DNA of 64,000 bases from IMG/VR virus record IMGVR_UViG_3300032242_001941, positions 32,001 through 96,000 of that record; one strand, 5' to 3'. This document shows, in pieces, positions 16,704 through 32,229 of the stretch. The notes beneath the pieces were generated by a model. The model was not told where the DNA came from. It did not search any database and saw nothing but the letters and a program-made list of their open reading frames with translations. Origin of the DNA: a virus. Numbering within the stretch: the stretch's first letter is position 1; each line of letters begins with the position of its first letter. The position numbers were made by a program, and so were the translations under genes.

Positions 16704-16732
16704 TTGACACAATCACCTATGTGTGTTATAAT
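16704..16732 (+). promoter_or_regulatory. sigma70 promoter for groES-groEL
   Basis: TTGACA-17bp-TATAAT. Confidence 0.8.
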
Positions 16733-16774
16733 CTATTGTTGTGGTATTATCATTTACATTTAAAAGGAGTATTA

Positions 16775-17062
16775 ATGAATCTAAAACCTACTAGAGATCG
16801 TATTGTTATACGTTTACTCGAAGCAGAAACTCAAACTAAATCTGGAATCTTTATCCCAGATGCCGCAGTTGAAAAACCAAACCAGGGCGAAGTATTGGCC
16901 ACAGGTGGCGGCCGCATCACAGAAGACGGCACCGTGATCCCAATGGAAGTTAAAACTGGTGATCGTGTACTGTTTGGCAAACACGCTGGCACACCGATCA
17001 AAGTTGACGGCGAAGAATATCACATCCTCAAAGAAGATGATGTAATGGCAATTGTAGAATAA
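16775..17062 (+). CDS. groES: Co-chaperonin GroES
   Basis: MNLKPTRDRIV, TKSGIFIPD, VKTGDRVLF, KEDDVMAIVE; AAGGAG RBS. Confidence 0.97.
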   Translation: MNLKPTRDRIVIRLLEAETQTKSGIFIPDAAVEKPNQGEVLATGGGRITEDGTVIPMEVKTGDRVLFGKHAGTPIKVDGEEYHILKEDDVMAIVE

Positions 17063-19231: not shown

Positions 19232-19290
19232 TATAATATAGTAAATACAGTGGAGGGCACAGTGCTCTCCACTACAATAAAGGATTGGAT

Positions 19291-19599
19291 ATGTCACAAG
19301 CAGGAACTGTAACAAAAACACAAATTAATCAAGGTCTTGCCGAACCTCCTATGTTTAAAATTATCTATCTTAATGATAATGCCACACCAATGGAATTTGT
19401 AATTGATACGTTAATGGATTCATTTAATTATAGTTCAGAAACAGCTGAAAAAATTACCATGGACATTCACGAAGCCGGAAGTGCTGTGGTTGCTGTATTG
19501 CCTTATGAAATTGCCGAACAAAAAGGTATTGAAGTTACAGTGCAAGCCCGAAACAACAACTATCCTTTACAAGTCAAGCTAGAACCCGAAACAATTTAA
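19291..19599 (+). CDS. clpS: Clp protease adaptor ClpS
   Basis: PPMFKIIYLNDNATPMEFV, IH..G.AVV, YEIAEQK, YPL. Confidence 0.93.
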   Translation: MSQAGTVTKTQINQGLAEPPMFKIIYLNDNATPMEFVIDTLMDSFNYSSETAEKITMDIHEAGSAVVAVLPYEIAEQKGIEVTVQARNNNYPLQVKLEPETI

Positions 19600-20387
19600 A
19601 AGTCAATTTCAATTCGACGAGGATAAAACACTCGCTGACACCAGTCGGTGTTGCCACGTCCCCTAGGATTGGAAATATATCTTATTCCTCCTAGGTTTTG
19701 ATCTACAGGCCTGTGATAGTGTCCAAAGCACCAGGTATGAATTTTTTGTTCAGTATCCTCGTCAATGGTGCGAGAAATATGACTGTTCCCCATGCCGTTA
19801 AATCTCCAGGTGTTGGCCAGATCAGGATCGTGTGCAATAACCCATGGTGCAGGAACGGTGTGACTAACCACAACAATGGCACCCACTTCCATATGGGTTT
19901 GTAATTTACGAACACTGTTCATCATATAAGATGCATCGTTGTAGGCCACGCCCATGATGTTTGTGGCGGTTGAATTATCAATACCAAAATGATCTTGTGT
20001 ATGTTGTATGCTAGCATCTACGCTTATGCTAGAATCAAAATCGTAGGTCCACCAAGCGTTGGTACCTAACAGAGCTACTCCGTTGACTATGATCACATTA
20101 TCCTGCATATAAACCACATTTTTTATAGATTTGATATCTTTAGCAAGGGCTCGATAACTAGCACCCAAATCGTCAAGATAATCTTTATGTTCTTCGTTAC
20201 CGTCGATATAAAAAACACCTCCAGGATAACATTGACCAAGGTGAGCCAGGGTGTCTAATAAACGTTGCCGGTCACGGGCTACATCACCGGCTACTACACA
20301 GTAAGGAGCCGTGGCTTGACTAGACCAATCAAAGTCGTTCCAAGTTTCAACGTGGAGGTCAGAAATTAAATCAAAAGCAAAAGTCAT
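19596..20387 (-). CDS. Calcineurin-like metallophosphoesterase
   Basis: SDLH, AGD, GNEEH, SHTVP, FGHYH and SNPRG motifs. Confidence 0.88.
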   Translation of the reverse strand: MTFAFDLISDLHVETWNDFDWSSQATAPYCVVAGDVARDRQRLLDTLAHLGQCYPGGVFYIDGNEEHKDYLDDLGASYRALAKDIKSIKNVVYMQDNVIIVNGVALLGTNAWWTYDFDSSISVDASIQHTQDHFGIDNSTATNIMGVAYNDASYMMNSVRKLQTHMEVGAIVVVSHTVPAPWVIAHDPDLANTWRFNGMGNSHISRTIDEDTEQKIHTWCFGHYHRPVDQNLGGIRYISNPRGRGNTDWCQRVFYPRRIEIDF

Positions 20388-20411
20388 GATAACTATTTAC
20401 AAGGATCGCAT

Positions 20412-20762
20412 ATGAACATAATATTTAAAACCAATGCAACAAATATAGATGAAAAATATACAGTTTTAGACTTAGATACCTTTAGTTTACCTGACGGATC
20501 TTTACATACTGCCTGTTGTGTAGTTGAAAACATACCCGTTGCTGAATTTCCAATAATCACCCGGTTAAAAGAATTACACGTTAATCTTATAAGTAATTAT
20601 GGTAAACGCAATTGGAACTATTGCGAACAGGCCATTGAGCAACTTATGGGCAAATGGGGAGGCGAAGTAGACTCATTTTATCAAGAGTTAAACGCCCGTA
20701 TACAAAAACTTAAAACCCAAAATTTAGACGATTCCTGGAGCCCTGTTATACCAAAAGCCTAA
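20412..20762 (+). CDS. Free-standing homologue of the C-terminal domain of the CHASE2 cyclase at 25640
   Basis: Aligns by eye: LMGKWGGEVDSFY...RIQKLKTQNLDDSW vs MKGTFGGQMDKYY...RCEFMKEQNLPDNW. Confidence 0.7.
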   Translation: MNIIFKTNATNIDEKYTVLDLDTFSLPDGSLHTACCVVENIPVAEFPIITRLKELHVNLISNYGKRNWNYCEQAIEQLMGKWGGEVDSFYQELNARIQKLKTQNLDDSWSPVIPKA

Positions 20763-20820
20763 ACAACAATCTTAAGATAAATACCCACATAATAATAAGA
20801 CTCTAAAAAAGGAGCTGGGT

Positions 20821-21102
20821 ATGAATGAAGTTTTTAAGATCATTGGAGATCTAGGATTTCCAGTAGCAGCCGCACTTGCAGGCGGTTATTTTGTATATCT
20901 CACAATCAAACTGTTATTAGCTGGCGTACTGTCAGCTGTTAAACAGATGGCTGGAATTATCACAGCCTTAGACAATCGTGTTAAAACTATGAATCACGAC
21001 GTTATCCGCATTGATACCGTTGTGAGTAATGCTTTGGGCTTACGCCCAGACGTAGAGCGCATAAGCCGCGCAGACGGTAAAAACGATGCAAGGAGAGACT
21101 GA
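20821..21102 (+). CDS. Small single-TM protein (paralogue A)
   Basis: IIGDLGFPV TM segment plus LDNRVKTMNHDVIRID. Confidence 0.75.
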   Translation: MNEVFKIIGDLGFPVAAALAGGYFVYLTIKLLLAGVLSAVKQMAGIITALDNRVKTMNHDVIRIDTVVSNALGLRPDVERISRADGKNDARRD

Positions 21103-21368
21103 TGTGGACTCGTGAAGAACGTCGTTGGGCAATAATGAATCGCAAAGAGTATATTGAACGTAATATGGCTATTTGTGATGAAGAAATTAAAACAAGAAAA
21201 CTTCAAAAGTTTCTAGGAGCTAAAACAATGGATTTTGATATTGAATATTTGGTCATACGCTTGCATGACATAGCCAGAGAAGTAGAACAACGTATTGGAT
21301 TTGGTGAATTAAGCAAAGACATTCGCAAGTGCGCTGATCGTTTAAGTAATATCAATAAGCCCGTATAA
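21102..21368 (+). CDS. Hypothetical protein
   Basis: TGATG translational coupling. Confidence 0.55.
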   Translation: MWTREERRWAIMNRKEYIERNMAICDEEIKTRKLQKFLGAKTMDFDIEYLVIRLHDIAREVEQRIGFGELSKDIRKCADRLSNINKPV

Positions 21369-21562
21369 TGAAATACTACGACTACGAATGGGATTTAGAA
21401 CCTAATAGAATTTTATTAGATTCAGAACTTAACGTAAATGCACTAGGTTGGCAAACCGGCGACTATTTCAAAGTTTCTACTGTCAATGGTCGTGCTATGT
21501 TAGTCAAAGTAGATCCGTTAGAAAAATTCTTAAGAGATGGAGTTAGCAATGAAAAAACATAA
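21368..21562 (+). CDS. Small protein, possibly AbrB/MazE-like fold
   Basis: LGWQTGD.F.V....G...L.K pattern. Confidence 0.4.
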   Translation: MKYYDYEWDLEPNRILLDSELNVNALGWQTGDYFKVSTVNGRAMLVKVDPLEKFLRDGVSNEKT

Positions 21563-21664
21563 TCCATATAAATTACCACCGCATCAAATTTGGACTGATT
21601 GGGATCTAGCCAAGTTTGCTCTGATAGCATTTGTGGTCGGCATTGCGGTAGGAGCAATATTATA

Positions 21665-21949
21665 ATGGGCGGCCTAGCAGAAATTATCAGCAAGTACGGA
21701 TTCCCAATGGTCATGGCAGTTGGCATGGGCTTTATCATACGCATGGTCTGGGAATGGTGTACCAAGGAAATCAAACCAGTTATCAATGATGCCAACGCAG
21801 TTCTTATTGGTCTTATTGATCGCATCCGTATGTTGGACAATGATTTGATTCGGTTGAATCAAAAAGTTAATACTGTGTTGCATCTACGTGGCAAAAGTAT
21901 TGATCACGAGCGTGTAGAAGCTGAACAACAGATCAACGAAAAATCGTAA
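21665..21949 (+). CDS. Small single-TM protein (paralogue B)
   Basis: IISKYGFPM TM segment plus LIDRIRMLDNDLIRLN; similar to the protein at 20821. Confidence 0.75.
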   Translation: MGGLAEIISKYGFPMVMAVGMGFIIRMVWEWCTKEIKPVINDANAVLIGLIDRIRMLDNDLIRLNQKVNTVLHLRGKSIDHERVEAEQQINEKS

Positions 21950-22002
21950 TACCGCCACTTAATATCTGTAAAAAACTATTAAATAATAGTAGGAGCTAGA
22001 GT

Positions 22003-22494
22003 ATGAAAAAAATAATAATAATAACTCTCTTAGCTTCTGCGCCTGCGTTTGTCACGGCTGCAGAACTACAACACTATTTTAGTAGCCCGGCCTTTAGCGG
22101 CGTTGGATACAGTAGCCATGTCTTGACTTTACAACAGCTAGAAACTCAACAAAAAGAAAAAAATAAATTGGCCGCAGATGCTATTGCAGCCAAAGCAGCC
22201 GCAGATGCTGCAAATACTCCACAGGCTAGATTTTTAGCCAACATTGAAAGTAGAGTCTATGCTCAACTAGCCAAACAAATTACCGATAGTTTGTTTGGTA
22301 CAGACGGTGTGCCTAGTTGTAAAGCAGTAAATCCTTACAGTCAGTGCGGATCTGTAAACATAGCGGGCAATGATATCACTTGGCGCCTGGGCGACCCAGC
22401 AAACGCCAGCGAAAAAGGCATGTTAGTAATCAACATTGCTGGTGCCACCGGCAACGTTCAAATGATGGTGCCATCTGGAACCTTTGCTTTTTAA
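22003..22494 (+). CDS. csgF: Curli assembly protein CsgF-like
   Basis: Signal peptide then ELQHYFSSPAFSG (cf. CsgF FQFRNPNFGG); F..NIESRVYAQLAKQI...LFG. Confidence 0.8.
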   Translation: MKKIIIITLLASAPAFVTAAELQHYFSSPAFSGVGYSSHVLTLQQLETQQKEKNKLAADAIAAKAAADAANTPQARFLANIESRVYAQLAKQITDSLFGTDGVPSCKAVNPYSQCGSVNIAGNDITWRLGDPANASEKGMLVINIAGATGNVQMMVPSGTFAF

Positions 22495-22503
22495 GAAAAA
22501 TAT

Positions 22504-23319
22504 ATGAAACATACCGTAATTTCCTTGCTTGCAATTGCTTTATTAGGTGGATGTGCCATTGGCAGTGGTATCCGCGAACAGCTGACAAACAAGCAGTTTG
22601 ACGAACCAGTGATAGAAAAAAGTATTGTATTAGCACAGCCAAAAAATCAACTAGCACCACCGGCAGATGGACCTATTGCTGTGGCTGTGTACGGATTCCA
22701 AGATAAAACAGGGCAACGCAAAAGTCAACTTGCTGTGGCCAGTTTAAGCAGTGCTGTAACACAAGGCGGCGAAAGTTACTTGATTAAAGCCTTACAAGAT
22801 GTAGGCGATGGCCGCTGGTTCACTGTGGTAGAAAGAGTTGGGCTAGACAACCTAATCAAAGAACGACAAATGATTCGCCAGGGTCGCGAACAGTATCAAG
22901 GACGTGATGCTAAACCGTTACCGCCAATGGTATTTGCCGGAATGATTGTGGAAGGTGCTATTGTGGGCTATGATTCAAATACTCTTACAGGTGGCGCCGG
23001 TATGCGTATCTTTGGTATTGGCGGCCAAACACAGTATCAAAGTGATACAGTCACGATTAGTTTGAGAACAGTCAGTGTTCTTACTGGAGAAGTATTGACC
23101 ACAGTTACAGTTACAAAAACTGTGTTGAGTTACATGGATAAATTTACAGTATTGAGATTTATCAATGACGGAACTAACTCCTTAGAATCAGAAATAGGAG
23201 GTAGTATAAACGAAAGTATTAACCGAGCAACAAGCGCAGCCATACAAGCCGCAGTGGTTGATACGATTCGTGAAGGTGCTCGTAAAGGACACTGGAATTT
23301 TAAAGAAGTAAAAAAATAA
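22504..23319 (+). CDS. csgG: Curli secretion channel CsgG-like outer-membrane lipoprotein
   Basis: Lipobox LLGG-C; VAVYGFQDKTGQRK, SSAVTQG, WFTVVERVGLDNLIKERQ, EGAIVGYDSN. Confidence 0.93.
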   Translation: MKHTVISLLAIALLGGCAIGSGIREQLTNKQFDEPVIEKSIVLAQPKNQLAPPADGPIAVAVYGFQDKTGQRKSQLAVASLSSAVTQGGESYLIKALQDVGDGRWFTVVERVGLDNLIKERQMIRQGREQYQGRDAKPLPPMVFAGMIVEGAIVGYDSNTLTGGAGMRIFGIGGQTQYQSDTVTISLRTVSVLTGEVLTTVTVTKTVLSYMDKFTVLRFINDGTNSLESEIGGSINESINRATSAAIQAAVVDTIREGARKGHWNFKEVKK

Positions 23320-23369
23320 CAATAAAAAATAGGAGCTTAGATTGGGGATAACCCAACTTTGAACAAACA

Positions 23370-24167
23370 ATGAAAACAAACAAATTAAATACAGCCTATA
23401 CAATATTTGCTGTGTTGGCATTTGTTTCATTAAATGCAGCCGCACAAAATGCGGCCACTGGACCTAACAAGGTTTACCTGGAACAGATTGGTAGCACTAA
23501 TACCATCACAGTTCAACAGGTTGGCGGCACTAACAATGTTGGCGGCACCGGCGGCAATGTAACAGTAGATACCAATGGCGTAACTACTTTTACACCCGAT
23601 GCCCCTGGCAGTACTAACTATGCTACAATCACGGGTGCTAACAATGTGGTTGGACTTAGTCAGACTGGTAGTAACAACACGGCTCAGTACAATATCACTG
23701 GCAGTAACAATACCTATAACAGTACTGTGGCTGGCAATAACAATCAAACTCGTTTGATCATGGGTGGTGCCAATGCCACAGCCAATTACAATACTGTAAC
23801 AGAAACAGTTACTGGCAGTAATAACTTGATATTACAAAACGTTCAAGGCAGTAATGTGGTCAGTGGTATTGGAATTGTTGGCAGTACCAACCAAGTGACT
23901 ACTGATTTATTAAGTAACCGCGGAAGTTCTAATATACAAATCACTGGCAGTACCAACGTGATCAATGCTGAACAGACGGGCGGTGCTGGTGCCAATGGGC
24001 ACATATTGATTAATAATGTGATAGGCGACTATAACAGTATTACCACCCAGCAACAGGGTTCTATTGATACAACAATCGATCTTAAGACCACAGGTAGTTT
24101 CAATACCGTCACGGTACGGTCCAGCGACTCGGCCATTGTCAATTCAAGAACTGCTGTAGCAAGGTAA
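23370..24167 (+). CDS. Secreted curlin-like beta-solenoid repeat protein
   Basis: Signal peptide; repeated Q.G..N / (I/V)TGS.N units; N/G/T-rich; immediately after csgG. Confidence 0.75.
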   Translation: MKTNKLNTAYTIFAVLAFVSLNAAAQNAATGPNKVYLEQIGSTNTITVQQVGGTNNVGGTGGNVTVDTNGVTTFTPDAPGSTNYATITGANNVVGLSQTGSNNTAQYNITGSNNTYNSTVAGNNNQTRLIMGGANATANYNTVTETVTGSNNLILQNVQGSNVVSGIGIVGSTNQVTTDLLSNRGSSNIQITGSTNVINAEQTGGAGANGHILINNVIGDYNSITTQQQGSIDTTIDLKTTGSFNTVTVRSSDSAIVNSRTAVAR

Positions 24168-24168
24168 T

Positions 24169-25269
24169 ATGCAGAAACTAATCACAGCCCTTTGCGTTAT
24201 GGTTGTATGTAACGCCTGGGCTGGCATTGGCACGGTTTCAGAACACAAAGGTACAGCCTGCGAGATCACACGAGACAAAAATAAATTATCTGGGCACAAA
24301 GATGCCATAGTTGAAAGTATGGACACATATACCACCGGTGCATGTGTCAGCAACATTACATTTAAAGATGACACAAAGGTTCGCATAACTGAGAACAGTC
24401 GCTTGCTTATTGATGATTTTGTATTTGATCCCAAGGCCAGCGATGCCGGCAAACTGGCTCTTAAAGTGAGCGCAGGCACTGTGCGCTATGCGTCGGGCCA
24501 GATTGCTAAAAATAGTCCACAAAAAGTAAATATTCAAACGCCAACAGCCACAGTGGCAGTTCGTGGTACTGATTTTACCATGACCGTTGACGAAGCTGGA
24601 CAAAGTCTGATAATGTTAATACCTAGTTGTAAAGATATCAACGAAGTTAAACAATATGAATTAGAAGAGAATAGATGCAAAGTTGGACGTATCGAAGTAA
24701 GCACTCTTGCTGGGTCAGTGGTCTTAGACCAAGCATTTGAAGCAACCTATGTTATGAGTGCTCTAATGGCACCAACTCCACCTATTGTTGTCAACACTGT
24801 TGAAAGTAAAATTAATAATAATCTTATTATTGTTAAACCTGTTGAAGTTCAACGAGCTATTAAAGAAGCAACAAAAACCAAACAAGAACAAGAACTTGAC
24901 GACATCGAAGCCGACGCGGCTCGACGACTAGCACAGGCTGTGGCCAAATCCGCCGAAGCCATTGAGGAAGCTCGTGTTTCCAAGTTTGTTGACCTTGCCA
25001 AACGGTCTGGGTGTAATTCTGCTACCAGTGTCTGTGTGATATGGGATAGACCGTCTGAAACAGAAATGATCAGTCGTGGACGTGGTATTGCATTCCGCCT
25101 AACAGAAAATGAGCATTATGCCGAAGTCAAGACACTTGGGTATGTATCCAACACCACAATTAACATTACACATAATGATATGCCATCATCGATCACTATC
25201 GGCGATGGCTCTCCTGGTGGAACTATTGTAACTATTAAACAAAACAATGGAGTATTAAAGTCTAAGTAG
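24169..25269 (+). CDS. Periplasmic FecR-domain protein
   Basis: Signal peptide; ITFKDDTKVRITENSRLLID, GTVRYASG, TPTATVAVRGTDF. Confidence 0.88.
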   Translation: MQKLITALCVMVVCNAWAGIGTVSEHKGTACEITRDKNKLSGHKDAIVESMDTYTTGACVSNITFKDDTKVRITENSRLLIDDFVFDPKASDAGKLALKVSAGTVRYASGQIAKNSPQKVNIQTPTATVAVRGTDFTMTVDEAGQSLIMLIPSCKDINEVKQYELEENRCKVGRIEVSTLAGSVVLDQAFEATYVMSALMAPTPPIVVNTVESKINNNLIIVKPVEVQRAIKEATKTKQEQELDDIEADAARRLAQAVAKSAEAIEEARVSKFVDLAKRSGCNSATSVCVIWDRPSETEMISRGRGIAFRLTENEHYAEVKTLGYVSNTTINITHNDMPSSITIGDGSPGGTIVTIKQNNGVLKSK

Positions 25270-25363
25270 CCCAAGAGTGTATACGTAGTTTATTTTTTAA
25301 TGGGCAGTACTTAAATACTATGCAGGCATATTATAACTATAACAAGCCGGCTACGCAGGATTT

Positions 25364-25393
25364 TATACCCACTTTACAGTGGGTATTTTTTTT
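25364..25393 (+). terminator. Intrinsic terminator
   Basis: ATACCCACT-TTAC-AGTGGGTAT followed by a T run. Confidence 0.75.
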
Positions 25394-25422
25394 GTTAAAT
25401 ACTAGTCATACCGGAGATACAA

Positions 25423-25647
25423 ATGACTGACTTTTTTAAACCCGATCCAAGAATTACTGACCCTGCACTAAGAGATTTAGAAAAAAAAGTGCATTGGCTT
25501 ATGTCACAAATTTATGCCGGAAGCTGGGCGCAGATGTGTAGTGATGCAGGGCTCGATTGTAATACCGTGTATAATACATTTCCAGATAATTTTGATATAA
25601 ACAATATTAGACCAGACGCAGAAGAAGTTCAAAATAACGATGCTTAA
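25423..25647 (+). CDS. Hypothetical protein
   Basis: GGAG RBS; overlaps the cyclase start; TAAATA upstream. Confidence 0.6.
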   Translation: MTDFFKPDPRITDPALRDLEKKVHWLMSQIYAGSWAQMCSDAGLDCNTVYNTFPDNFDINNIRPDAEEVQNNDA

Positions 25648-27691
25648 AAAAATCTTAACAAGTCCGTGGACTGCTCTATTGACGCTGGCCTTAGTAGTGG
25701 GGTTACGGGTAGCAGACCCTACATTTGTTGAAAGCGTTCGTCTACGCTATTTTGATACGCTTATAACTAGTAAGCCTGCAGAAGTTATAGGTGTTAGTGT
25801 TGTAAACATTGATGAAAAGGCATTAGAAAAATATGGACAATTTCCTTTCTCCCGCGATCAGTACGCTGCCATCGTCCGGGATTTATATCGCCGCAATGCT
25901 GGTCTTGTTGTTTTTAACATCCTTACTCCTGATCGCGATCGCATGGGGCATGATGCAGAATACATCCAAGCCCTTCGCCAGTATCCAACAATTCTCCCTA
26001 ACATTGGGTCGCAAACTTCTCGTAATACTCCAAAAGCTCCTGGCTCAGTAGTCATAGGCCCATTTGGTCTAGATGCCTTTGTTACCTATCCTGGTATTAT
26101 TGCTAACCAACCTGCTATTGAAAATGCCGCAGTCGGTGTTGGTATTGTAAATACCTTGCCAGAAGTAGACGGTGTCGTTCGTCGCATGCCAATGGTAGTA
26201 GCATATGATGGCAAGTTGTACCCGAGCCTTGCTATGGAAACACTTCGAGTAGCTGGCGCCGACACCACTTTCCAAGTGAAGATCAACGAAACAGGCGTTG
26301 AGAAAATGCGCATTCCAAAGTTTGGAGCTATTACAACAGATTCATTGAGCCGTATTTGGGTTGACTGGTCACTGGTACCAAGTAAATATGGTTTAACGGA
26401 CTTGCCAAAAGATTTTGAAGGTGAAATTGTTATTGTTGGTGTATCAGCACAAGGACTTGCAAACCCTGTAGCTACAAGCCTTGGCGAAATGCTACCACAA
26501 GATTTACAAGCAAGTGTATTGGGTACTGTAATTGCCAATAGAGATCGTCCGGCAATTACTCGCCCAGATTGGGCCGATGGTGCAGAAATTGTATTTGTCG
26601 TTACGGCAGGTATTGTATTGTTATTTTTATCAAGGTGGGTTTATGTTGGACTTTGTTCATCTGTTTTTATACTCGGCGGGAGTATATTGCTGTCTCGTTG
26701 GGCTTATGGAAATTACGCTTGGCTTGTGGACGCGACTATTCCAGTCGTTGGCCTTGGCCTTGTGCTTCTTCATGCTTATGGTGTTAAGTTCGTAAGTGAG
26801 TTTTTACAAAAGCAAGCAATCAAGAAACAGTTTGCTGGCTACTGCTCCAAAGAAGTAGTGGAGCTATTGCAAAAAGATCCAGACCTAATCAAACGCGGTG
26901 TGCGCAAAGATGTCAGTGTCATGTTCTCAGACCTACGTGGCTTTACTCCTATCGGTGAACACTATGGTGATGATGTTGCTGGACTTGGAAAATATATGAA
27001 CGGTTATATGGATAGCATTAGTTGTCCTATTCTAGATAACAAAGGTATGATTATTAAGTATGTAGGTGATGCATCGATGCACATACACGGCGCTCCTATT
27101 GAAGATCCTAATCACGCACATACTATTGTTAAGGTAGGACTTGAGATGTTAGATGCTGTGGATGAATACACTAAACTAATGGAAGCACAAGGATTACCTC
27201 CTGCCGCAATGGGTTGGGGTTGTAACTCAGGTATTGGCTTTATTGGTGAAATGGGAAGCACAGATAGACACAGCTATGACATCTTAGGTGACATGGTTTC
27301 AACAGCTGCACGACTAGAAGCACGTTGTAAGGCCTATGGTGTGTTATGTATTATTGGTGCTGAAACATACAATAGAACTCGAGACGATTTCTTTTACTTG
27401 TTACTAGACAACTTGCAACCAAAAGGCAAAACAGTAGCAGACTTAATCTATACAGTATTACGTACTAAAGGTGTAGACTACAGTAAAGATAAGGCACAAC
27501 ACGAAAAAATGCATGACTTGTACCGAGCTAAAAAGTTTGATGAAGCCGCCGCTATGTGTACTAAAATGAAAGGCACCTTTGGCGGGCAGATGGACAAGTA
27601 CTACAAGATATGGATTGAACGTTGCGAGTTTATGAAAGAACAAAATTTACCAGATAACTGGAATGGCGAATTTGTGGCACACGAAAAATAG
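25640..27691 (+). CDS. CHASE2-domain class III adenylate/guanylate cyclase
   Basis: N-terminal TM; VNIDEKAL..YGQFPF.R and DGVVRRMP (CHASE2); three TMs; MFSDLRGFT, KYVGDA, YDILGDMVSTAARLE. Confidence 0.95.
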   Translation: MLKKILTSPWTALLTLALVVGLRVADPTFVESVRLRYFDTLITSKPAEVIGVSVVNIDEKALEKYGQFPFSRDQYAAIVRDLYRRNAGLVVFNILTPDRDRMGHDAEYIQALRQYPTILPNIGSQTSRNTPKAPGSVVIGPFGLDAFVTYPGIIANQPAIENAAVGVGIVNTLPEVDGVVRRMPMVVAYDGKLYPSLAMETLRVAGADTTFQVKINETGVEKMRIPKFGAITTDSLSRIWVDWSLVPSKYGLTDLPKDFEGEIVIVGVSAQGLANPVATSLGEMLPQDLQASVLGTVIANRDRPAITRPDWADGAEIVFVVTAGIVLLFLSRWVYVGLCSSVFILGGSILLSRWAYGNYAWLVDATIPVVGLGLVLLHAYGVKFVSEFLQKQAIKKQFAGYCSKEVVELLQKDPDLIKRGVRKDVSVMFSDLRGFTPIGEHYGDDVAGLGKYMNGYMDSISCPILDNKGMIIKYVGDASMHIHGAPIEDPNHAHTIVKVGLEMLDAVDEYTKLMEAQGLPPAAMGWGCNSGIGFIGEMGSTDRHSYDILGDMVSTAARLEARCKAYGVLCIIGAETYNRTRDDFFYLLLDNLQPKGKTVADLIYTVLRTKGVDYSKDKAQHEKMHDLYRAKKFDEAAAMCTKMKGTFGGQMDKYYKIWIERCEFMKEQNLPDNWNGEFVAHEK

Positions 27692-27743: not shown

Positions 27744-28268
27744 ATGACCCGCACTATTCACAAATATCAATTACATCCATTTTGGGATGATGAATACAAA
27801 CATTTATCCTATGTTCATGAATCATTTAATGATCCTGAATTAACTAACACTTGGTTGGCCCAGGGTTATCCTGATCAATTTACCGGCGACATGTGTGATA
27901 TGCGCAGTCCACAACCCACGTGGAATCAACGATTTGTGGACATCTTTCGAGGGCAAGGGTGGCGAGACGTTGGTACCAGTTATTATCGAATGAATACTGG
28001 TACAGTATTACCTACTCACAGTGACTTATACCTAAAATACATCGAACTTTTTAACTTACGAGGTCGCGAACATACCATACGCCGTGCTATAATATTTTTA
28101 GAAGATTGGCAACCGGGCCACTATGCTGAATATCGAAATATTGCCTATGTGAATTGGCGAGCCGGTGCCACAATTGAATGGACATATGATACTCCACACA
28201 TGGCAGCTAATTTAGGATTAACTCCAAGATACACTTTACAAATAACAGGACACATAGATGGTCAATAG
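27744..28268 (+). CDS. 2OG-Fe(II) oxygenase-like (double-stranded beta-helix) protein
   Basis: LPTHSD...PHMAAN.G..PRYTLQITG facial-triad pattern. Confidence 0.75.
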   Translation: MTRTIHKYQLHPFWDDEYKHLSYVHESFNDPELTNTWLAQGYPDQFTGDMCDMRSPQPTWNQRFVDIFRGQGWRDVGTSYYRMNTGTVLPTHSDLYLKYIELFNLRGREHTIRRAIIFLEDWQPGHYAEYRNIAYVNWRAGATIEWTYDTPHMAANLGLTPRYTLQITGHIDGQ

Positions 28269-29181
28269 TCGCAATGAATGGGATCCGTTAGAAGCTATTA
28301 TTGTAGGTAGTGCTACCAATGCTAATTGGCCAATGACTGATCCAGTGTTTGCTGAAGAAGCTAGGAATAGCCTGTGGACCAAAACACCGGCACCCGGTGG
28401 CCCAGTGCCGCAGTTTATCGTTGATGAAGCTAATCGCGAATTAGACATCTTGTCAGAAACCCTAGTTCGATATGGCGCTACAGTTTATCGTCCTCGACCA
28501 ATGGATTTTGTTAAACGCCAAGGCATGTACAACTATTGTCCAAGAGATCGACTACTAGTGGCCGGCGATACTGTAGTTGACTGCAACATGATGTATCCGT
28601 GTCGCAATCAGGAAATTGAAAATTATTATAGATTACTTGCAGATGCTTGTAACACATATACTATGCCTAGAGACCAAGATATGACCCTGGATGCCGCAAA
28701 CATTTGTCGACTTGGAGATACTTGGTTATTTTTACAATCAGCATCGGGTAGTATTTCTGCGTACTATTGGTTAAAGTCAAAATTCCCTAAAATTACAATT
28801 GAGCTGTGTAACTTTTACGCAGGTGTCCATATTGATTCTACTATTACTCCTTTGCGTGAAGGACTAGTCATGTTAAATGCCGGACGTGTTACTGAAGATA
28901 ACTGTCCACAAGCATTTCAAGATTGGGAAAAAATTTGGGTCACAGAAAACATGATTGTAGCACAAGACTTTTATCAATATCCTTATGCGTCAAAATGGAT
29001 AGCTATGAATATGTTGGTCTTGGATCCAGAAACTGTAATCATAGATGCCGCACAAACAGAGCTAATTACTATACTGAAGTCCCGAGGAATTGATTCAATT
29101 CCCTTGACACTAAGCCATAGTAGAACACTAGGCGGCGGATTTCATTGTGTAACCTTGGATACTCGTAGACGTCATGCATAA
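28258..29181 (+). CDS. Amidinotransferase (glycine/inosamine-phosphate type)
   Basis: NEWDPL, CPRD, HIDST, GGGFHCVTLD. Confidence 0.9.
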   Translation: MVNSRNEWDPLEAIIVGSATNANWPMTDPVFAEEARNSLWTKTPAPGGPVPQFIVDEANRELDILSETLVRYGATVYRPRPMDFVKRQGMYNYCPRDRLLVAGDTVVDCNMMYPCRNQEIENYYRLLADACNTYTMPRDQDMTLDAANICRLGDTWLFLQSASGSISAYYWLKSKFPKITIELCNFYAGVHIDSTITPLREGLVMLNAGRVTEDNCPQAFQDWEKIWVTENMIVAQDFYQYPYASKWIAMNMLVLDPETVIIDAAQTELITILKSRGIDSIPLTLSHSRTLGGGFHCVTLDTRRRHA

Positions 29182-31335: not shown

Positions 31336-32229
31336 ATGCCAAAAATTTTATACATAATCGAGCCAACAGTTGATTTTAACCTGACTGAACCAACATCTGT
31401 ACTGTTAACTCATTGCAACGACAAGTTAATACACGACAAGTATCATACATCTCTCGGCGATTTAACACGTCAAGAAATATGTTCTATTGTTGATCAATTT
31501 GATTCGATATCATTTGTTGAAAATGGATTTGATAAAAGTTCAACTATCTATAAAGAAACATTAATTTTGTTAAATTTTTTACAGCATCGTCATACTGTAG
31601 TAAATTTTACTAAAGATAATGTAATTAACTTTATCAATGACCAAGATCTTGTTCAGCGTCCTGACACGCCAGTATTATGGGTCTTTGGGTGCAGTCATAG
31701 TCATGGAGTTGGTCTAGACAGTTTTGAGCAATGCTACAGCAGTATAGTGAGTAAACAATTAAACTTACCATTAAAATCAATCACTCAACCTGGTAGTTCA
31801 TTGGGTTGGAGTTTCAGGCACATGATGCAGGCCAATATACGATCCGACGATTTAGTAATTTGGCAGTTGACTACGCCTGAAAGATTTACAAAAGCAGTAG
31901 ACTTTACCGGGAAATGCAAAGAGATATTGCTAAAAAATGCCAGTGTAGAAGAAGTTTTATTTTGGTCTGACTTGCAACTATTTTATAATCATGTAAATTA
32001 TTTAAACATTGGTTTAAAATTTCTTAGAAATTTAAAAGTAAAATCAATTATTACATCTCTTGATAATATGAGCGATCTTTATTATCAATGTTTATTGGAA
32101 TATACCAAGCATCCGGAGTATTGTTATCTTCCGGGATACAATGTTGATACCGGCAACGACAATACACATTTTGGACCATTGACCCATCAAAATTTGGCCA
32201 ATGGAATATTGAAGTTTTTATCAAATTAG
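31336..32229 (+). CDS. SGNH/GDSL-like domain protein
   Basis: VFGCSHSHG, PGSS and D.THFG motifs. Confidence 0.6.
   Translation: MPKILYIIEPTVDFNLTEPTSVLLTHCNDKLIHDKYHTSLGDLTRQEICSIVDQFDSISFVENGFDKSSTIYKETLILLNFLQHRHTVVNFTKDNVINFINDQDLVQRPDTPVLWVFGCSHSHGVGLDSFEQCYSSIVSKQLNLPLKSITQPGSSLGWSFRHMMQANIRSDDLVIWQLTTPERFTKAVDFTGKCKEILLKNASVEEVLFWSDLQLFYNHVNYLNIGLKFLRNLKVKSIITSLDNMSDLYYQCLLEYTKHPEYCYLPGYNVDTGNDNTHFGPLTHQNLANGILKFLSN

Follow-up and report, generated by a model that had tools for sequence, protein, structure and literature searches.

The window analyzed here is a 64,000-nucleotide stretch of viral DNA (positions 32,001 to 96,000 of the IMG/VR record IMGVR_UViG_3300032242_001941), and the subject of this analysis is a gene block at window positions 19596-27691 that encodes parts of a curli exporter together with a FecR-fold protein and a CHASE2-domain adenylate cyclase. 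The presence of this block is confirmed, and it is intact and selected as a unit. Its five core genes (csgF, csgG, a curlin-like gene, fecR and the cyclase gene) share one orientation (Table 1). An earlier note on this DNA had proposed this gene content and the co-orientation. Pfam matches bear out CsgF, CsgG, FecR and the CHASE2 cyclase, and the curlin identity holds at the level of the family profile. The accessory genes in that note were also recovered: two small membrane protein paralogues (phrog_18771), a free copy of the cyclase C terminus (BLASTP 1e-6) and a divergently oriented phosphoesterase (phrog_1649). CsgG is additionally matched by the NCBIfam CsgG model (4e-49), under its equivalog cut-off.

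Table 1. Genes and signals in and around the block. Positions are those of the window; locus counts refer to the 82 loci of the co-conservation analysis. aa, amino acids; ORF, open reading frame.
Feature	Position	Strand	Basis
CsgF-like secreted protein, 163 aa	22003..22494	+	Pfam CsgF 3e-7, 31 bits vs cut-off 25.8; Sec signal peptide by inspection
CsgG outer-membrane lipoprotein, 271 aa	22504..23319	+	Pfam CsgG 9e-49; lipobox LGGC by inspection
Secreted divergent curlin-repeat protein, 265 aa	23370..24167	+	Family profile; signal peptide by inspection
FecR-fold protein, secreted, 366 aa	24169..25269	+	Pfam FecR 9e-11; signal peptide by inspection
CHASE2 class III adenylate cyclase, 683 aa, C-terminal helical extension	25640..27691	+	Pfam CHASE2 7e-36 and Guanylate_cyc 1.5e-13
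Small membrane protein TM93, 93 aa, invariant C-terminal tail RADGKNDARRD	20821..21102	+	phrog_18771 8e-32
Small membrane protein TM95, 94 aa, TM93 paralogue	21665..21949	+	phrog_18771 2e-26
Free paralogue of last ~110 cyclase residues, 116 aa, terminal beta-strands and three-helix tail	20412..20762	+	BLASTP 1e-6 to cyclase residues 618-674
88-aa ORF	21102..21368	+	Homologues in 16/82 loci, all between TM genes
64-aa ORF between TM genes	21368..21562	+	In 63/82 loci of giant-phage lineage
74-aa ORF overlapping cyclase start, coding uncertain	25423..25647	+	Homologues in 0/82 loci; no Pfam or PHROG match
Metallophosphoesterase, 263 aa, divergent from cassette	19596..20387	-	phrog_1649 2e-23; TIGR03729 below cut-off
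Intrinsic-terminator-like hairpin, 9-bp stem and T run, ends csgF-fecR unit	25365..25396	+	
Promoter-like TAAATA preceding TM93	20778..20783	+	
Promoter-like TAAATA preceding csgF	21980..21985	+	
Promoter-like TAAATA preceding 74-aa ORF-cyclase unit	25396..25401	+	

The curlin-like protein by itself has no significant Pfam match. Its own match to the Curlin_rpt model is sub-threshold (window 23466-23525, E 8e-4); the model is matched by 14 of its 16 orthologues, and the profile of the family finds the solved structure 8c50 of a curlin-repeat protein (4e-16) and, with little strength, CsgA (8enq, 0.028). At the family level, these matches support the assignment of the product as a putative fiber subunit, a level at which a separate nucleator is indistinguishable from it. 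It is the single fiber-subunit gene in the window copy of the block. As the earlier note had it, csgE is missing: neither the contig nor any of the four complete relative genomes gave a match to CsgE (PF10627), and the Escherichia coli control was positive. The absence of CsgE is typical of alphaproteobacterial-type curli operons. As far as operons of this type lacking csgD and csgE are described through PMC9599517 (after Dueholm et al. 2012), the window shares with them CsgG, CsgF, a curlin-repeat subunit and the lack of CsgE, whereas it differs in its one very divergent curlin gene and in the FecR protein, cyclase and membrane protein pair that are embedded in or attached to it.

The FecR-fold protein consists of a signal peptide, a FecR domain (residues 20-205), a long helix (residues 225-279) and a C-terminal beta segment that ends in a curlin-like strand. 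The AlphaFold2 model has a predicted local distance difference test (pLDDT) score of ~90 over residues 20-205, and this domain has the fold of the PupR periplasmic signaling domain (6ovk, Z 14.8, 134 residues aligned, root mean square deviation (rmsd) 2.5 Å). The protein has neither a cytoplasmic anti-sigma domain nor a membrane anchor, and the FecR domain starts at about residue 20, right after a cleavable-type signal peptide. This arrangement identifies a FecR-domain protein rather than an iron-citrate anti-sigma factor of the FecIRA type, an assignment that was rejected because the N-terminal anti-sigma domain and inner-membrane helix of such factors are missing. Model residues 17-113 can, in addition, be aligned with an adhesin retention domain, 73 of whose 76 residues are covered (5ix9, Z 6.7, rmsd 2.1 Å); with Z below 8, this likeness may be no more than that of a common beta arrangement. 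At the C terminus, ~43 residues resemble the final curlin repeat, with an hhalign score of 24.3 compared to 8.1 ± 1.6 for the shuffled null. None of 200 column shuffles reached this score (maximum 12.9), the reversed sequence scored 12.1, and other stretches of the protein compared with the curlin family gave P = 0.57 and 0.92. Fold matches of the C-terminal domain to LolB, OspA and PapC (Z ~5) were not used because of the low pLDDT of this part of the model.

The cyclase is composed of a CHASE2 domain at residues 15-325 and a Guanylate_cyc domain at residues 423-568 by Pfam, with hydrophobic segments assigned by inspection, and it is 43% identical to the cyclase of Methylophilales phage Melnitz. 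The C-terminal extension also exists as a free copy. The AlphaFold2 model of the 116-residue ORF (pLDDT 80) superposes over nearly its whole length on a phage CHASE2 cyclase (Foldseek TM-score 0.67, 114 columns), and ~7 further loci likewise have a free cyclase tail, in each case directly upstream of csgF. A TPR identity for the tail was rejected, the best Z of 6.4 lying in the range of common helical arrangements.

The block is almost certainly the phage module of type VIII secretion (curli), FecR and cyclase genes that is already in the literature. Wittmers et al. (2022; PMC9599517) described a module with the order "HK"-CsgF-CsgG-CsgA/B-FecR-CsgA/B-AC, containing one or two small "HK" proteins, in podo- and myo-pelagiphages. 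They showed its global distribution and expression, put its share at ~0.1% of the viral proteins of ocean viromes and traced it, by inference, to Alphaproteobacteria. Two years earlier, pelagimyophages had been reported to carry csgF and csgG (Zaragoza-Solas et al. 2020; PMC7029224). Buchholz et al. (2022) considered that CsgGF might form a lysis pore but made no mention of FecR or the cyclase. The components that define the published module all lie at 20821-27691, and the optional second curlin gene alone is missing. Annotations of Pelagibacter phage HTVC008M (gp011-019) and of phage Melnitz (gp97-104) show this gene order too, with the shared components 30-54% identical to those of the window; at the nucleotide level, a search of cultured phages with the 8-kb block returned no match. 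The window copy differs from the pelagiphage modules in its host phage (~360-kb, T4-like and 42% GC compared to a ~140-kb pelagimyophage or a podophage), in the lack of a second curlin gene, in two extra small ORFs that accompany the membrane protein pair, and in the added free cyclase-tail copy, phosphoesterase and terminator between fecR and the cyclase gene. The earlier note called the role of phage csgF and csgG unresolved; the block itself, FecR and the cyclase among its genes, was already in print (PMC9599517) and is no discovery.

Co-conservation across phages was set as a test of the block in the earlier note, and it held in 141 viral contigs and in the two cultured phages. The 141 contigs encode a cyclase 57-84% identical to the window cyclase; 80 of them entered the co-conservation analysis, and per-gene counts were taken over 82 loci. 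In every locus with a sufficiently long flank, the cyclase gene has csgF, csgG and fecR upstream of it. The trio formed by TM93, the 64-residue ORF and TM95 is also linked to the cyclase gene; in the relatives it is mostly on the opposite strand and downstream of the cyclase, whereas in the window it is upstream and on the same strand. Linkage is maintained while gene order shifts. The window copy is the most compact, and relatives hold a second curlin-repeat gene (797 residues in some cases) and other cargo between fecR and the cyclase gene. In one such relative (L019, 217-13040), a gene for a membrane protein of the Bax-inhibitor-1 family is found upstream of csgF and the CsgG protein has an SH3 domain fused to its C terminus; a fatty-acid desaturase, a D-Ala-D-Ala carboxypeptidase and a curlin-repeat protein of 797 residues are also encoded there.

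The source is a 111.6-kb IMG/VR viral contig with a CheckV completeness of ~32%. Contigs with close relatives of its cyclase are 357-372 kb long, two of them with terminal repeats, and all four complete relative genomes have a single cyclase gene each and a gene for a T4-type gp23 capsid protein. Because of gp23 and these large, complete genomes with relatives of the cyclase, the phage is assigned to an uncultured T4-like lineage of giant myophages with genomes of ~360 kb. It has no close cultured relative, and the window ligase reaches at most 35% identity to those in cultured phages. One new result is the co-conservation of the block in this lineage; the gene content itself was known. Matches to the cyclase in metagenome-assembled genomes (MAGs) of unrelated phyla (L084-L095, 40-70% identity) were considered as a cellular CsgG-FecR-cyclase cluster, and this was rejected because the sequences are phage contigs. 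Cassette-bearing phage contigs are binned in MAGs labeled Chitinophagaceae, Rhodobacteraceae, Luteolibacter, Bacteroidetes, Pirellulales and Pelagibacter, and one of them (L086) encodes a T4-like clamp, clamp loader, endolysin and ligase. Phage contigs in such bins could mislead the inference of host or origin.

TM93 and TM95 are the best-conserved members of the block. They are 73-94% identical within the lineage and about 50% identical to their counterparts in the marine phages (about 52% for TM93 against Melnitz and HTVC008M), with CsgF and CsgG at 30-45%. BLASTP of TM93 against TM95 gave no alignment; the two proteins are considered paralogues because they belong to the same PHROG and cross-match each other's loci, and both contain a membrane helix and the motif LDNRVK.M..D.IR. 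Among 50,697 phage records, the TM93 family was found in only six, all of them cassette carriers, and the nearest Atlas clusters of the two proteins are entirely viral. By this distribution, the pair are judged to be virus-only members of the block. TM93 is the "HK" of Wittmers et al. The histidine kinase label is unsupported: neither a HisKA/DHp nor a HATPase_c domain was found, and 93-94 residues are too short for a kinase core. No Pfam domain matches the pair at E <= 10 save a YvrJ lead (E 0.14; Atlas 0.89), which was too weak to be used; PDB searches returned insignificant coiled-coil matches only, and the annotated function of phrog_18771 is unknown.

The layout of these small proteins, anchored at the N terminus with coiled C termini, resembles that of holins, and together with the weak YvrJ leads it could fit a function in lysis. 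In such a scheme the CsgG/CsgF pore would be reused for permeability or lysis timing, the pair would act as holin and antiholin, and the cyclase would set the timing. A lysis role for CsgGF was proposed by Buchholz et al., and an endolysin gene lies 2 kb from the cyclase gene in the T4-like contig L086. On the other hand, no lysis gene adjoins the block in the window, the pair has no holin match in libraries or structures, and curlin, CsgF and FecR would be superfluous for a role as a pore only. A function in lysis is considered very unlikely, and the control of lysis timing raised in the earlier note, like its idea of superinfection sensing, found no direct support.

Bacterial genomes provide a precedent for the FecR-cyclase half of the block. 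In a sample of 101 alphaproteobacterial genomes, 41 of which have CHASE2 genes, a FecR-domain gene lies within 8 kb of 16 of the 40 best CHASE2 loci and is mostly adjacent, compared to a chance level of ~2% calculated from 25 FecR domains in the 24.3 Mb of five genomes (about 1/Mb). Pfam models find a FecR neighbor at 16 of the 19 CHASE2 genes of these five genomes and a CHASE2 gene adjoining 17 of their 25 FecR domains; the five were picked after matches had been seen, and 16/40 is the unbiased figure. In Sinorhizobium meliloti, the precedent invoked by the earlier note, a 1197-residue FecR and TPR outer-membrane protein carries its FecR domain at the N terminus, and its stop codon overlaps the start of a CHASE2 cyclase gene. 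The pair is taken by position to be NsrA and CyaK, which are genetically required together for signal perception (PMC7529298), and this precedent stands. Ruegeria has a gene for a small FecR protein directly before the cyclase gene. On an Inquilinaceae chromosome (L096, 1-16000), a CHASE2 cyclase gene is overlapped at its start by the gene for a 2107-residue adhesin-like protein whose N terminus holds a FecR domain. This pair is flanked by type I secretion genes (ABC transporter, HlyD) and a divergent gene for a cyclic nucleotide monophosphate (cNMP)-binding EAL protein, and all five FecR domains of the genome adjoin its four CHASE2 genes. From its gene content, the cluster looks like a complete adhesin-linked circuit of cyclic AMP (cAMP) and cyclic di-GMP. 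Published clusters outside the sample include a Campylobacterota set of CHASE2 cyclase, phosphodiesterase, FecR outer-membrane protein and TPR protein (PMC9239204) and a Burkholderia operon of LysM-FecR and CHASE2 kinase (PMC5192318).

The phage block and these bacterial pairs have in common a secreted or outer-membrane FecR-domain protein that is encoded beside a CHASE2 sensor, and the phosphodiesterase and TPR protein of the Campylobacterota cluster are echoed in the window by the phosphoesterase and the helical cyclase-tail copy. The partners differ. Bacterial FecR partners have beta-barrels, TPR repeats, LysM or giant adhesin repeats, and none is beside CsgG, whereas the phage partner is small and has a curlin-like end strand. 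Since bacteria pair FecR with CHASE2 far above chance and none of those sampled pair it with CsgG, the phage block appears to join two bacterial modules, a curli exporter and a FecR-CHASE2 sensor pair, with the junction found only in phages within this sample.

These data suggest an envelope-to-cAMP sensor as the leading, if tentative, mechanism, to which we would give somewhat less than an even chance. An alphaproteobacterial-type exporter that works without CsgE and CsgD, made of the CsgG pore, CsgF and the curlin-repeat subunit, would put a fiber on the surface of the infected cell. The secreted FecR-fold protein would be retained in the periplasm and would report the state of the pore or fiber to the periplasmic CHASE2 domain, possibly through its curlin-like C-terminal strand docked on the fiber. 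The cyclase would then alter its cytoplasmic cAMP output, and the two virus-only membrane proteins would be obligatory partners. For the FecR-cyclase half, such a relay is the best-supported mechanism; the step from pore to FecR is argued from the curlin-like tail and the operon position.

Several observations weigh against this relay. CsgG is beside FecR or CHASE2 in none of the 40 bacterial loci and is distant in those genomes that have one, which leaves the pore-to-FecR step without precedent. The C-terminal part of the FecR model, which includes the proposed docking strand, has low confidence (pLDDT 50-59). The hairpin listed in Table 1 splits fecR from the cyclase gene, making the latter a separate transcription unit, and in a few relatives the csgFG-fecR genes are inverted relative to the cyclase gene. 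In the cyclase itself, S554 replaces the transition-state Asn, a substitution that lowers kcat in mammalian cyclase. No cNMP-binding domain was found in the contig or in the four complete genomes of the lineage. The surface-to-cAMP relay of the earlier note stands in part: the pairing of FecR with CHASE2 in bacteria and the five catalytic residues kept in the cyclase speak for it, whereas outside phages CsgG is not linked to FecR or CHASE2, and on the output side the transition-state Asn is missing, the cyclase gene is a separate unit and no cAMP receptor was found in the phage genomes.

The active site bears on whether the cyclase signals through cAMP at all. Five of the six canonical catalytic residues are kept (D431, D477, K473, D547 and R558), and both metal-binding Asp residues, the Lys/Asp adenine pair and the Arg are strictly conserved across sequences that are 34-84% identical. 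Asp at the adenine-specifying position is combined with Ser at the transition-state position in 61 of 69 phage cyclases; Thr or Ser is combined with Asn instead in HTVC008M, in phage contigs L087 and L088 and in the bacterial cyclase of Inquilinaceae L096. Because the adenine-specifying and transition-state residues co-vary over long divergence, the Asp/Ser combination looks like a maintained variant of a putatively active enzyme rather than decay. The same co-variation, and the lack of a cNMP-binding receptor in the complete phage genomes, could instead indicate a weak enzyme, an enzyme with an altered product or a scaffold that disturbs host nucleotide pools or nucleotide-based defenses. The strict retention under long divergence of the metal Asp pair, the Lys/Asp adenine pair and the Arg argues for ATP catalysis, and the CHASE2 relatives of S. 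meliloti make cAMP (PMC7529298, PMC13001267). An enzyme without a cAMP signaling role is given a low probability.

The exporter half of the block raises a different alternative, in which the block is mainly a fiber factory. A curli-like amyloid would clump hosts ("sibling capture") or shield them from superinfection, and FecR and the cyclase would merely regulate the system or host physiology. All export parts of an alphaproteobacterial-type curli system are present, many relatives have a second large curlin-repeat gene (797 residues in L019), and this is the reading of PMC7029224 and PMC9599517. It leaves unexplained, however, why FecR is inside the operon between fiber genes and ends in a curlin-like strand, and why FecR and CHASE2 are in a fixed pairing in curli-free bacteria. 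In addition, Melnitz-infected cells did not clump (Buchholz et al.), and the one curlin gene in the window provides no separate nucleator. Fiber production as the main function is considered rather unlikely.

A more specific form of the envelope-to-cAMP sensor takes the retention-domain likeness of FecR literally. In giant adhesins of the LapA/MpIBP type, a retention domain at the N terminus stays in the periplasm and keeps the protein in its outer-membrane channel (bioRxiv 10.1101/198937). The N terminus of the phage FecR protein resembles the retention domain 5ix9, and the Inquilinaceae chromosome has a FecR-headed adhesin; in contrast to those adhesins, the phage FecR protein is small and Sec-secreted, and the pore to which it is linked is of type VIII, not type I. 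The FecR curlin-like strand could join the fiber at or through the CsgG/CsgF pore while the FecR domain, like a retention plug, would stay in the periplasm and touch CHASE2. Pulling, loading or loss of the fiber by particles, cells or incoming phages would then be converted to cAMP, with the membrane protein pair taking part in the read-out. This arrangement is improbable as a specific proposal. If true, it would be a phage-built surface-contact sensor in which a type VIII secretion system and a bacterial FecR-CHASE2 pair are combined.

The end of fecR lies 370 bp ahead of the cyclase gene on the same strand, an adjacency like that of the bacterial FecR-CHASE2 pairs. A TAAATA element stands before each of the three units of the block, those of the membrane proteins, csgF and the cyclase (Table 1). 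The sequence TAAATA is found 40 nucleotides or less upstream of a plus-strand ORF start at 13 of its 30 sites in the window, compared to 1.9 expected, and the ORF-upstream sites include 10979, 18714, 20778, 21980, 25396 and 60029. TAAATA may be the core of a late-type promoter of the phage. The canonical T4 late promoter TATAAATA was rejected, being neither enriched in the window nor present in the block; the shorter TAAATA alone is enriched.

The accessory genes are less constant. The 64-residue ORF between the membrane protein genes has an 'LGW..GD' motif and is absent from Melnitz and HTVC008M. Its similarity to an Atlas cluster in which 38% of members carry MazE_antitoxin (0.85), with a PDB profile match at E 0.5, is only a lead to a possible AbrB/MazE-type DNA-binding fold. 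The metallophosphoesterase gene is found divergently oriented beside the membrane protein pair in 13 of 52 loci, with ~22% identity between the proteins, and is a peripheral rather than a constant member. The protein belongs to the generic calcineurin-like family, and its GNHE motif reads GNEEH. Assignment as a cAMP phosphodiesterase of the CpdA/Rv0805 type was unsupported by NCBIfam, Pfam, and PDB sequence and profile searches, and comparison with solved cAMP phosphodiesterases gave no specific match by sequence or profile.

The window also encodes a ribonucleotide reductase, an ATP-dependent ligase, GroEL, ClpS and tail-fiber proteins. GroEL is 68% identical to a gammaproteobacterial GroEL, which is only a hint that the host may belong to the Gammaproteobacteria. 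An ORF of 113 residues (16721-17062) precedes the GroEL gene at the position expected of groES and is a groES candidate by position. The ClpS adaptor gene (19285-19599) is directly upstream of the block. Downstream of the cassette, ORFs of 174 and 307 residues (27744-29181) recur in 12 loci and have no Pfam match; the larger ends in '...GGGFHCVTLD', reminiscent of the catalytic Cys region of the amidinotransferase type.

For the window alone the gain is modest, in that a known module is extended to a giant T4-like lineage. The analysis adds testable details, namely the core membership of the membrane protein pair, the resemblance of the FecR tail to curlin, the variant active site with Asp and Ser, and the free paralogue of the cyclase tail. 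The block is frequent in ocean and lake phages and gives infected cells a secretion system that is absent from their hosts. If the FecR-CHASE2 pair is a sensor and is wired to a phage-made fiber, the block would be a rare environmental sensing pathway installed by a virus and a compact model for the CHASE2 family, whose ligands are unknown.

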